Shown here one piece after another: positions 43,057-43,275 of a DNA stretch of 64,000 bases. The stretch lies in the NCBI RefSeq assembly GCF_000026545.1, contig NC_011601.1; one strand, given 5' to 3'. Under the pieces are notes generated by a model. It was not told the DNA's origin. It saw only the letters and a list, made by a program, of their open reading frames with translations, and ran no database searches. The stretch is from Escherichia coli O127:H6 str. E2348/69. Lineage in GTDB: Bacteria > Pseudomonadota > Gammaproteobacteria > Enterobacterales > Enterobacteriaceae. The position numbers were made by a program, and so were the translations under genes. Positions within the stretch are counted from its first letter, which is position 1. Every line of letters begins with the position of its first letter.

Positions 43057-43105
43057 AAAAAGGGCCGCTTTCGCGGCCCTTGAGATTGATAGCAAAGACA
43101 AAACT

Positions 43106-43204
43106 GCCTGATGCGCTACGCTTATCAGGCCTACATACTTCCTGCAATATGTTGAATTTGCAAAATCTTGTAGGACGGATAAGGCGTTCACGCCGCATCC
43201 GGCA
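43106..43204. repeat. REP/BIME cluster between the SPFH gene and tktA
   Basis: GCCTGATGCGCTACGCTTATCAGGCCTAC and GTAGGACGGATAAGGCGTTCACGCCGCATCCGGCA palindromic units; flanked by two near-identical GC hairpins at 43061-43080 and 43235-43255. Confidence 0.8.
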
Positions 43205-43275
43205 TAAACAACGCGCACTTTGCCAACAATCTGAAGGGCCGCATTTGCGGCCCTTCTCACAAAGCATCTTACCGA

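Follow-up and report, generated by a model that had tools for sequence, protein, structure and literature searches.

A BIME-1 repeat bracketed by two copies of a terminator hairpin between an SPFH gene and tktA in Escherichia coli, and a candidate integration signature for BIME-1 elements

The window considered here, a stretch of 64,000 nucleotides from Escherichia coli O127:H6 strain E2348/69 (contig NC_011601.1), contains in succession cmtA and cmtB (minus strand), a gene of the SPFH/Band 7 family (plus strand), tktA (minus strand) and loiP (plus strand). The convergent spacer between the SPFH gene and tktA is 219 nt long and is occupied by two repetitive extragenic palindromes (REPs), which together form a bacterial interspersed mosaic element of the BIME-1 type, with a GC-rich hairpin at either end. 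An earlier note on this DNA had described two near-identical hairpins that differ in the loop only and bracket two REPs, and both the sequence and the repeat scans agree with that description. The arrangement is that of a dispersed repeat flanked on both sides by the same site-specific palindrome in direct orientation, the limits of the duplicate coinciding with those of the palindrome and of the element; the adjoining A and T tracts remain outside, and loss of the element leaves one copy of the palindrome. The features concerned are the following.

42148..43056, plus strand: SPFH/Band 7 (prohibitin family) gene, 302 aa (open reading frame; Pfam Band_7, E=5.6e-32; RefSeq 'prohibitin family protein').
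43055..43061, minus strand: A7 run, which is the minus-strand T7 or U-tract of the putative intrinsic terminator in the tktA direction and lies outside the duplication (sequence, terminator scan).
43060..43081, no strand assigned: hairpin copy 1, AAGGGCCGC TTTC GCGGCCCTT, left copy of the proposed duplicated target (sequence, repeat and terminator scans).
43082..43105, plus strand: BIME-1 left outer arm, GAGATTGATAGCAAAGACAAAACT, 24 nt, an imperfect inverted repeat of the right arm (inverted-repeat scan; alignment to the 153-nt consensus).
43106..43134, plus strand: Y-type REP, or palindromic unit, GCCTGATGCGCTACGCTTATCAGGCCTAC (sequence, inverted-repeat scan; seed of the collection scan).
43135..43169, no strand assigned: BIME-1 L linker, 35 nt, with CTGCAATATGTTGAATTTGCA, unique in the window (aligns with 85 other copies).
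43170..43203, minus strand: Z1-type REP, inverted, reading GCCGGATGCGGCGTGAACGCCTTATCCGTCCTAC on the minus strand (sequence, inverted-repeat scan).
43204..43233, plus strand: BIME-1 right outer arm, ATAAACAACGCGCACTTTGCCAACAATCTG, 30 nt (inverted-repeat scan, consensus alignment).
43234..43255, no strand assigned: hairpin copy 2, AAGGGCCGC ATTT GCGGCCCTT, right copy of the proposed target, without a T tract in the tktA direction (sequence, repeat scan).
43082..43255, no strand assigned: 174-bp variable unit, consisting of BIME-1 plus one hairpin and present zero, one or two times in SPFH-bearing E. coli.
43276..45267, minus strand: tktA (transketolase), with its stop codon at 43276-43278, 20 nt from hairpin copy 2 (open reading frame, RefSeq annotation).

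The two hairpins are represented by the 20-mers AGGGCCGCTTTCGCGGCCCT (43061-43080) and AGGGCCGCATTTGCGGCCCT (43235-43254); the second of these had previously been assigned to 43235-43255, a location that stands with an end coordinate one base shorter. When the outer A/T pair is included the palindromes measure 22 nt, and they form direct repeats at a spacing of 174 in which 20 of 22 bases are identical, the sole difference being the loop (TTTC versus ATTT). The repeats lie at distances of 0 and -1 from the ends of the BIME-1, which itself takes up 152 bp (43082-43233) between the convergent genes. Inverted similarity extends a further 16 nt past each hairpin, yielding 38-nt arms of 82% complementarity whose inner parts correspond to the BIME-1 outer arms.

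The two copies differ in their relation to the neighboring tracts. On the minus strand, hairpin copy 1 has a stem of 9 bp, of which 7 are GC, and a loop of 4 nt, and it runs directly into TTTTT, or into T7 when two T's of the stem are counted; the corresponding A7 run at 43055-43061 is overlapped by the TAA stop codon of the SPFH gene (43054-43056). This distal hairpin is the only strong terminator-like site reported by the terminator scan, which supports the earlier description of it as a strong terminator with a minus-strand T7 tract, and its features are those of an apparently functional intrinsic (Rho-independent) terminator for tktA. The proximal copy, next to the tktA stop codon, continues on the minus strand as CAGATTGTTG; it has no T tract, as had also been pointed out, and was not reported by the terminator scan. 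In the direction of the SPFH gene neither hairpin copy is followed by a good U tract in any allele.

By its sequence, the element between the hairpins is an ordinary BIME-1, a type of repeat that also appears under the names RIP/RIB, REP doublet and REPIN-like unit. BIME-1 elements are described as comprising y and z1 REPs and a conserved long L linker that often carries a site for integration host factor (IHF) (PMC3333891). More specifically, the element has a Y REP and an inverted Z1 REP, a long L linker, an extragenic location and a length of roughly 140-150 bp, and it is present or absent as a whole. The assignment to Z1 rather than Z2 follows from the GTGAACGCC core and from the L linker found beside it, not from a curated list. 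Within the linker, CAATATGTTGAAT (43145-43157) is one mismatch away from the reverse complement of the IHF consensus WATCAANNNNTTR and constitutes a predicted IHF site. The same linker is matched on the minus strand (43127-43169) by the Rfam family ES036/CssrF (RF02751), with 50 bits against a gathering score of 37.6, and judging from the match this 'sRNA' family seems to correspond, in whole or in part, to a piece of a dispersed repeat. Sub-threshold Rfam matches (naRNA4, STnc30 and others) were set aside as REP-related families or chance.

The distribution of alleles at this locus is revealing of what exactly has been duplicated. In a survey of 5426 E. coli genomes, 1829 bear the SPFH gene, and these carry one, two or three hairpins, always paired with zero, one or two BIME-1 units, respectively. 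The state with one hairpin and no BIME is exemplified by strain S1-JOR-02-A (L002), which reads TAAAAAAAGGGCCGCTTTCGCGGCCCTTCTCACAAAG, and the lone hairpin of this and of three further 0-unit alleles (L131, L132 and L133) is identical to hairpin copy 1 of the window. The window itself represents the allele with two hairpins and one BIME, and in strains 100248 and CB7453 (L003 and L007) a third hairpin and a second BIME are added at a period of 174. At least one unit is present in 1369 of the 1829 SPFH-bearing genomes, the 0-unit state accounting for about 25%; of 60 records sampled at even intervals, 14 gave a match that breaks off precisely where hairpin 1 ends, and 5 are two-unit alleles. 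The variable unit is thus BIME-1 together with one hairpin, and the duplication belongs to the BIME and not to the SPFH gene. The same SPFH protein accessions, and identical or near-identical SPFH genes, are found with differing numbers of units. Smaller variants also occur, including a 9-bp deletion beside the hairpin in ETEC4071 and, in H105, a 13-nt deletion in the Y REP/L region along with the loss of one G from hairpin 1. The ATTT loop of hairpin 2 is common to E2348/69 and H105, other alleles having TTTC.

The history of the unit appears to reach beyond E. coli. Escherichia albertii (L021) possesses an orthologous hairpin-BIME-hairpin arrangement between its SPFH gene and tktA, sharing the locus-specific non-consensus variants GATGGCAAAGGCAAAACT, GTAGGTCGG and CCGACAT, and its SPFH gene is about 14% different from the E. 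coli genes. On a neighbor-joining tree of SPFH genes, the 0-unit alleles fall among filled alleles at three or more separate positions: L002 and L131 (0-unit) differ from L136 (1-unit) at 2-3 of 909 nt, L132 (0-unit) is closest to the 1-unit L138, and L133 (0-unit, ST38) is closest to the 2-unit L007. The most economical reading of these sequences is that the unit predates the split of E. coli and E. albertii and has since undergone at least three precise losses and one doubling, a number of losses that recombination between lineages could lower.

Two other intergenic regions with BIME-1 show the same anatomy in genomes that do not carry the SPFH gene. The BIME-1 between yddM and fdnI (L005) has AAAATGGCGCCTTTTACAGCGCCATTT on each side, and that between aspC and gloC (L006) has AGCCCGC...GCGGGCT on each side with differing loops. 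Together with the metE-ysgA region, where E. albertii has a BIME-1 with CGGGTGG-N5-CCACCCG at both sides, these regions also have alleles in which the element is missing, as listed here for E. coli.

aspC-gloC: filled in 2811 E. coli genomes; the empty allele is 172 bp shorter, reads AAGCCCGCTGAAAAGCGGGCTTTTTT and has one hairpin (L128).
yddM-fdnI: filled in 2070 E. coli genomes; the empty allele is about 178 bp shorter and has one hairpin (L129).
metE-ysgA: filled in none of 5426 E. coli genomes; the K-12-like sequence contains one hairpin, CCGGGTGGTAATACCACCCGG.

At all four loci, SPFH-tktA, aspC-gloC, yddM-fdnI and metE-ysgA, the empty alleles thus have exactly one copy of the hairpin. A separate observation concerns the yddM-fdnI spacer, which in some BIME-less genomes contains the insertion sequence IS200C (Y1 transposase); in E. 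coli FDAARGOS_1282 (L130:253-975) this lies at the A-tract foot of the terminator hairpin, which is unduplicated, and the same hairpin carries BIME-1 in other genomes.

The wider occurrence of the duplicated hairpin was assessed with a pattern scan (CTTATCAGGCCTAC-N7-CTGCAAT) of a species-representative genome collection, which yielded at least 120 stretches from E. albertii, three further Escherichia lineages, two divergent E. coli genomes and Pseudocitrobacter. Among the matches listed, 86 complete copies align end to end with a 153-nt consensus, and it is on these that the following counts are based. For each copy, the 45 nt outside the left end were compared with the 45 nt outside the right end by local alignment score, and 1017 mismatched left/right pairs served as a control, the high scores among the latter being largely due to orthologous loci. 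A score of at least 10 was obtained for 49 of the 86 real copies (57%) as opposed to 3.2% of the mismatched pairs, and a score of at least 12 for 43 of 86 (50%) as opposed to 1.8%. When sites were grouped by flank similarity, the repeat was found in 25 of 42 clusters, one large cluster of which lumps tandem arrays together.

The repeats are closely tied both to the element and to a local hairpin. In 48 of the 49 cases they abut the element ends, mostly with no gap on the left and an offset of -1 to +1 on the right, and their length (12-30 nt) tracks the size of the palindrome rather than being fixed as in a transposase-set duplication. In 39 of these 48 repeats the pairing starts at the outermost bases and gives a palindrome with a stem of 5 bp or more, and the direct orientation scores above the inverted one in 40 of 43. 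Each locus has a GC-rich hairpin sequence of its own. Of the 86 copies, 66 have a perfect GC-rich hairpin directly at one or both element ends, compared with 5/84 and 2/86 for controls placed 60-96 nt further out. On its outer side the left hairpin copy is bordered by an A-run in 27 of 42 cases, and the right copy by a T-run in 17 of 42, the corresponding numbers for the inner sides being 1/42 and 0/42. Because these runs occur on the outer and not the inner sides, the original targets look like intrinsic terminators, often bidirectional, with A/T tracts left outside the duplication. Orthologs of one locus of Escherichia sp. MOD1-EC7003 (L114) were sought in E. coli, where its flanks are not conserved. 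In Pseudocitrobacter, at L050 and L066, the two hairpin copies differ by an inverted loop (e.g. GCAAGC versus GCTTGC), a change of the kind that would be expected from template switching within a palindrome.

These results make it probable that a single 152-bp BIME-1 lies within what was formerly one terminator hairpin shared by the SPFH gene and tktA, the two present hairpins being copies of that target. It is likewise likely, to about the same degree, that integration of BIME-1 at hairpins is what produced the hairpin duplication in general. A broader proposal is advanced more tentatively, and it may well prove not to hold: that BIME-1, and perhaps REPINs generally, have an unrecognized integration signature in which a whole terminator stem-loop is duplicated, the length being set by its structure, through joining at the hairpin foot on both strands, probably by a Y1/HUH enzyme. 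The particular way in which two strands might be joined by an HUH enzyme is more doubtful still. In structure-directed integration of this kind the stagger would match the length of the hairpin, being defined by an extruded hairpin or cruciform instead of a fixed spacing. In the two-strand HUH version, each strand of the element would be carried as a 5'-phosphotyrosine adduct and joined, on each target strand, to the 3'-OH at the 3' foot of the hairpin; the two element strands would then pair, and filling in of the gaps opposite both hairpins would leave the hairpin duplicated, whereas a one-strand event would leave it on one side only, a state that is also seen. With integration at the hairpin, the outer A and T tracts stay outside, such that termination would be kept in both directions as the BIME enters the 3' untranslated region (3'UTR). 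The resulting 22-bp direct repeats around a long palindrome could subsequently give rise to precise deletion (0 units) or to unequal exchange (2 units).

TnpA-REP works on single-stranded DNA through a 5'-phosphotyrosine, its only requirement being a C|T close to a functional REP (PMC3333891), and TC|T is present 2-3 nt from the terminus at both ends of the BIME-1. The chemistry and single-strand requirement of TnpA-REP/RAYT, as well as the symmetry of REP doublets, are compatible with the two-strand model. So is the position of IS200C, which likewise encodes a Y1 transposase, at the foot of the yddM-fdnI hairpin.

Several considerations weigh against integration as the source of the repeats. 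No insertion event was directly observed among the alleles surveyed, and 37 of the 86 copies (43%) have no clear flank repeat; in 18 of these 37 a hairpin is found on one side only, and insertion beside a hairpin could equally be the primary event. Preservation of the repeat showed no significant correlation with the similarity of an element to its group consensus (rho 0.18-0.23, p 0.07-0.11). Because the corresponding E. albertii sites are filled, the E. coli empty alleles at SPFH-tktA, aspC-gloC and yddM-fdnI are probably secondary deletions, and therefore reveal what recombination between the repeats leaves behind (one hairpin) and not the state before insertion; metE-ysgA is the sole lineage-specific case examined and comes without an outgroup. 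Many of the surveyed genomes are draft assemblies in which tandem arrays are unreliable. With respect to mechanism, Y1 transposition of the IS200/IS605 type makes no target duplication (PMC3333891), and the proposed two-strand joining is without precedent. Finally, the signature may already have been described in the BIME literature of the 1990s.

The alternative that survives best assumes that BIME-1 inserted beside one hairpin and that the second hairpin appeared later, whether by duplication or unequal exchange with partial loss or by a rolling-circle-like amplification dependent on TnpA-REP. The one-sided hairpins in 18 of 37 repeat-less copies would find a ready place in such a scheme, tandem arrays of BIME plus hairpin do exist, and published amplification models permit the copying of flanking sequence (PMC3333891). 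However, two events would be needed at more than half of the sites, and a duplication of hairpin plus BIME yields hairpin-BIME-hairpin-BIME and not the observed hairpin-BIME-hairpin. The repeat limits, moreover, are those of the palindrome and of the element ends at nearly every site, and at one orthologous locus, at which L074 has both copies and E. albertii L013 one, it is the one-sided state that looks derived. A later origin of the second hairpin is accordingly regarded as unlikely.

It was also suggested in the earlier note that the spacer is a tandem terminator plus REP stabilizer arrangement for tktA. As anatomy this is accurate: in the tktA transcript the stop codon is followed by 20 nt, a hairpin without a U tract, BIME-1, and a hairpin with U7, so that the terminator of the 0-unit allele is retained and the 3'UTR gains 174 nt of strongly structured RNA. 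As design it is not borne out, the arrangement being better seen as a by-product of the mode of insertion. A version in which the arrangement was kept or assembled by selection as a tktA 3'-end module, made up of a pause hairpin, a REP/IHF stabilizer and a terminator, would agree with the conservation of the unit between E. coli and E. albertii, with the conservation of hairpin stems as loops vary, with the predicted stability of the tktA 3'UTR (-107 kcal/mol, z = -9.5), and with reports of REPs as 3'UTR regulators (bioRxiv 10.64898/2026.03.23.713779). The predicted minimum-energy fold pairs one hairpin copy with the other, local hairpins formed co-transcriptionally being the alternative. Yet about a quarter of SPFH-bearing genomes, in several lineages, have lost the unit and others have doubled it, so that it looks neutral or nearly so, and two thirds of E. 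coli genomes make do with an unrelated, plain tktA terminator. Repeated loss, doubling and this plain terminator argue against a strong requirement for the unit, and selection at tktA would leave the same anatomy beside unrelated genes unexplained, making it a quite improbable origin. For annotation, the practical consequence is that where a hairpin without a U tract follows a stop codon and is itself followed by a BIME, the copy to be scored as the terminator would be the distal one and not the proximal hairpin.

The other suggestion made at the outset, that the second hairpin was left as a footprint when recombination or insertion placed the SPFH gene between cmtB and tktA, has only a very slight probability. 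The cmtB-tktA spacer is indeed a two-state cassette polymorphism (window 41772-43275 versus L001:1573-1885), containing either the SPFH gene or an unrelated sequence of about 310 bp. Both hairpins are inside the SPFH-specific segment, the right boundary of the cassette is a few nt beyond the tktA stop codon, and SPFH-less genomes of the K-12 type, with the unrelated spacer of ~310 bp, have neither hairpin and a tktA terminator hairpin of their own (AAAAAGGTCGCCGAAGCGACCTTTTT), all of which could be expected of such a footprint. The hairpins nevertheless number one, two and three in step with zero, one and two BIME-1 units and do not follow the SPFH gene, nearly identical copies of which are accompanied by different unit numbers; the repeat abuts the ends of the BIME and not those of the cassette; and dozens of loci unrelated to SPFH exhibit the same anatomy with other hairpins. 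The alignment to SPFH-less genomes, which had been proposed as a means of finding the ancestral hairpin, turns out to be neutral, since neither hairpin predates the SPFH cassette. In one 0-unit strain, E. coli O6:H16 2014EL-1346-6 (L131:1-67), an IS1 transposase gene is found about 320 bp upstream of the SPFH gene, replacing the cmtB side.

A chance resemblance of two GC-rich terminator hairpins, which are common downstream of genes, can practically be dismissed given that 20 of 22 bases are identical, that the pattern AAGGGCCGCNNNNGCGGCCCTT occurs at just these two sites in 64 kb and 0 times in 100 shuffles, and that the hairpin copy number varies in register with the BIME. Three further candidates were rejected. 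A fold-back or inverted duplication of half an element does not agree with the asymmetric loops, which show direct repeats in 40 of 43 cases; the hairpin is not part of a mobile element, its sequence being locus-specific and empty sites keeping one copy; and insertion into a hairpin loop, leaving half-arms as in Di Nocera 2013, does not agree with the complete hairpins on both sides.

Integration with duplication of the target hairpin, the preferred interpretation, has partial parallels in several known systems. BIME-1 elements are treated in the published descriptions covered as single copies, with flanking repeats unmentioned, whereas a hairpin duplication and two-unit tandems are found here; the presence or absence of whole elements among E. 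coli isolates is on record (PMC3333891; PMC1187871, citing Bachellier 1997). The likeness to REPINs (RAYT / TnpA-REP; Bertels & Rainey 2011, Nunvar 2010, Ton-Hoang 2012) lies in the inverted pair of REPs forming one long hairpin-forming unit, in the loss of whole doublets, and in the single-copy Y1/HUH enzyme that is the presumed mobilizer. No target-site signature has been reported for REPINs, however, and the hairpin duplication seen here would be one. The mechanism by which REPs and REPINs are disseminated is stated to be unknown (PMC8266576; PMC3333891; bioRxiv 10.64898/2026.03.23.713779).

Miniature inverted-repeat transposable elements (MITEs) are similar in having imperfect terminal inverted arms, a direct target repeat abutting both ends and a single target copy at empty sites. 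Their target duplications are short and of fixed length; in contrast, the repeat described here is 12-30 nt long, variable, a complete palindrome, and sized by the structure of the target. REPs have been said to lack the signatures of MITEs (review PMC3184786), and IS200-like enzymes make no target repeats (PMC3333891; PMC2817692). REP dimers within palindromes are known from Anabaena variabilis, Thermomicrobium roseum and Halothiobacillus neapolitanus (Di Nocera et al. 2013, PMC3733652). These are likewise REP doublets with a flanking palindrome, which their authors read as the target; there, however, a conserved repeated palindrome is split into half-arms, while here each site has a unique hairpin that is complete on each side.

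With regard to target choice, both the IS200/IS605 family and bacterial group IIC introns direct themselves to hairpins or terminators, the IIC introns inserting just after intrinsic-terminator stem-loops. Like BIME-1 as envisaged here, they have their target at the foot of a GC-rich stem-loop, probably in single-stranded DNA; their insertion is one-sided, in contrast, and leaves the hairpin unduplicated. No description of a flanking hairpin duplication was found in the REP/BIME/REPIN literature covered, which did not extend to the BIME papers of the 1990s (Bachellier 1997, Boccard & Prentki 1993).

Taken locally, then, the spacer adds a further instance of a known repeat, and the general signature offers a lead on how REP repeats spread. 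If the signature is true, it predicts the target (GC-rich intrinsic-terminator hairpins), where cutting takes place (on both strands, at the hairpin feet) and what product results, and it would explain the location of BIME-1 at the 3' ends of transcription units. BIME-1 would be tolerated at such ends because termination is preserved in both directions, and whole units would be present in some isolates and absent from others because direct repeats around a long palindrome favor precise deletion.

Elsewhere in the window, a second BIME is found after loiP (46322-46468) and contains three REPs (Z-type, Y-like, Z-type). It has neither an L linker nor a flanking hairpin repeat, and the hairpin signature may therefore be specific to BIME-1.

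In Escherichia sp. MOD1-EC7003, BIME-1 units stand in tandem arrays of 5-9, each joint carrying a hairpin, although this genome is a draft short-read assembly and the arrays may be misassembled. They are located at L117:650-2000, at about 7400-8300 of L119 (reverse), from L120:4350-5438 into L121:1-450, and at L122:380-1124. The inner joints of the L117 array have only a left half-hairpin, AGCCGCC, joined to the next unit via a TGAAAA microhomology. In the array spanning L120 and L121 four different hairpins alternate, some of which are identical to hairpins at L114 and L122, as if units of BIME plus hairpin moved between BIME sites.

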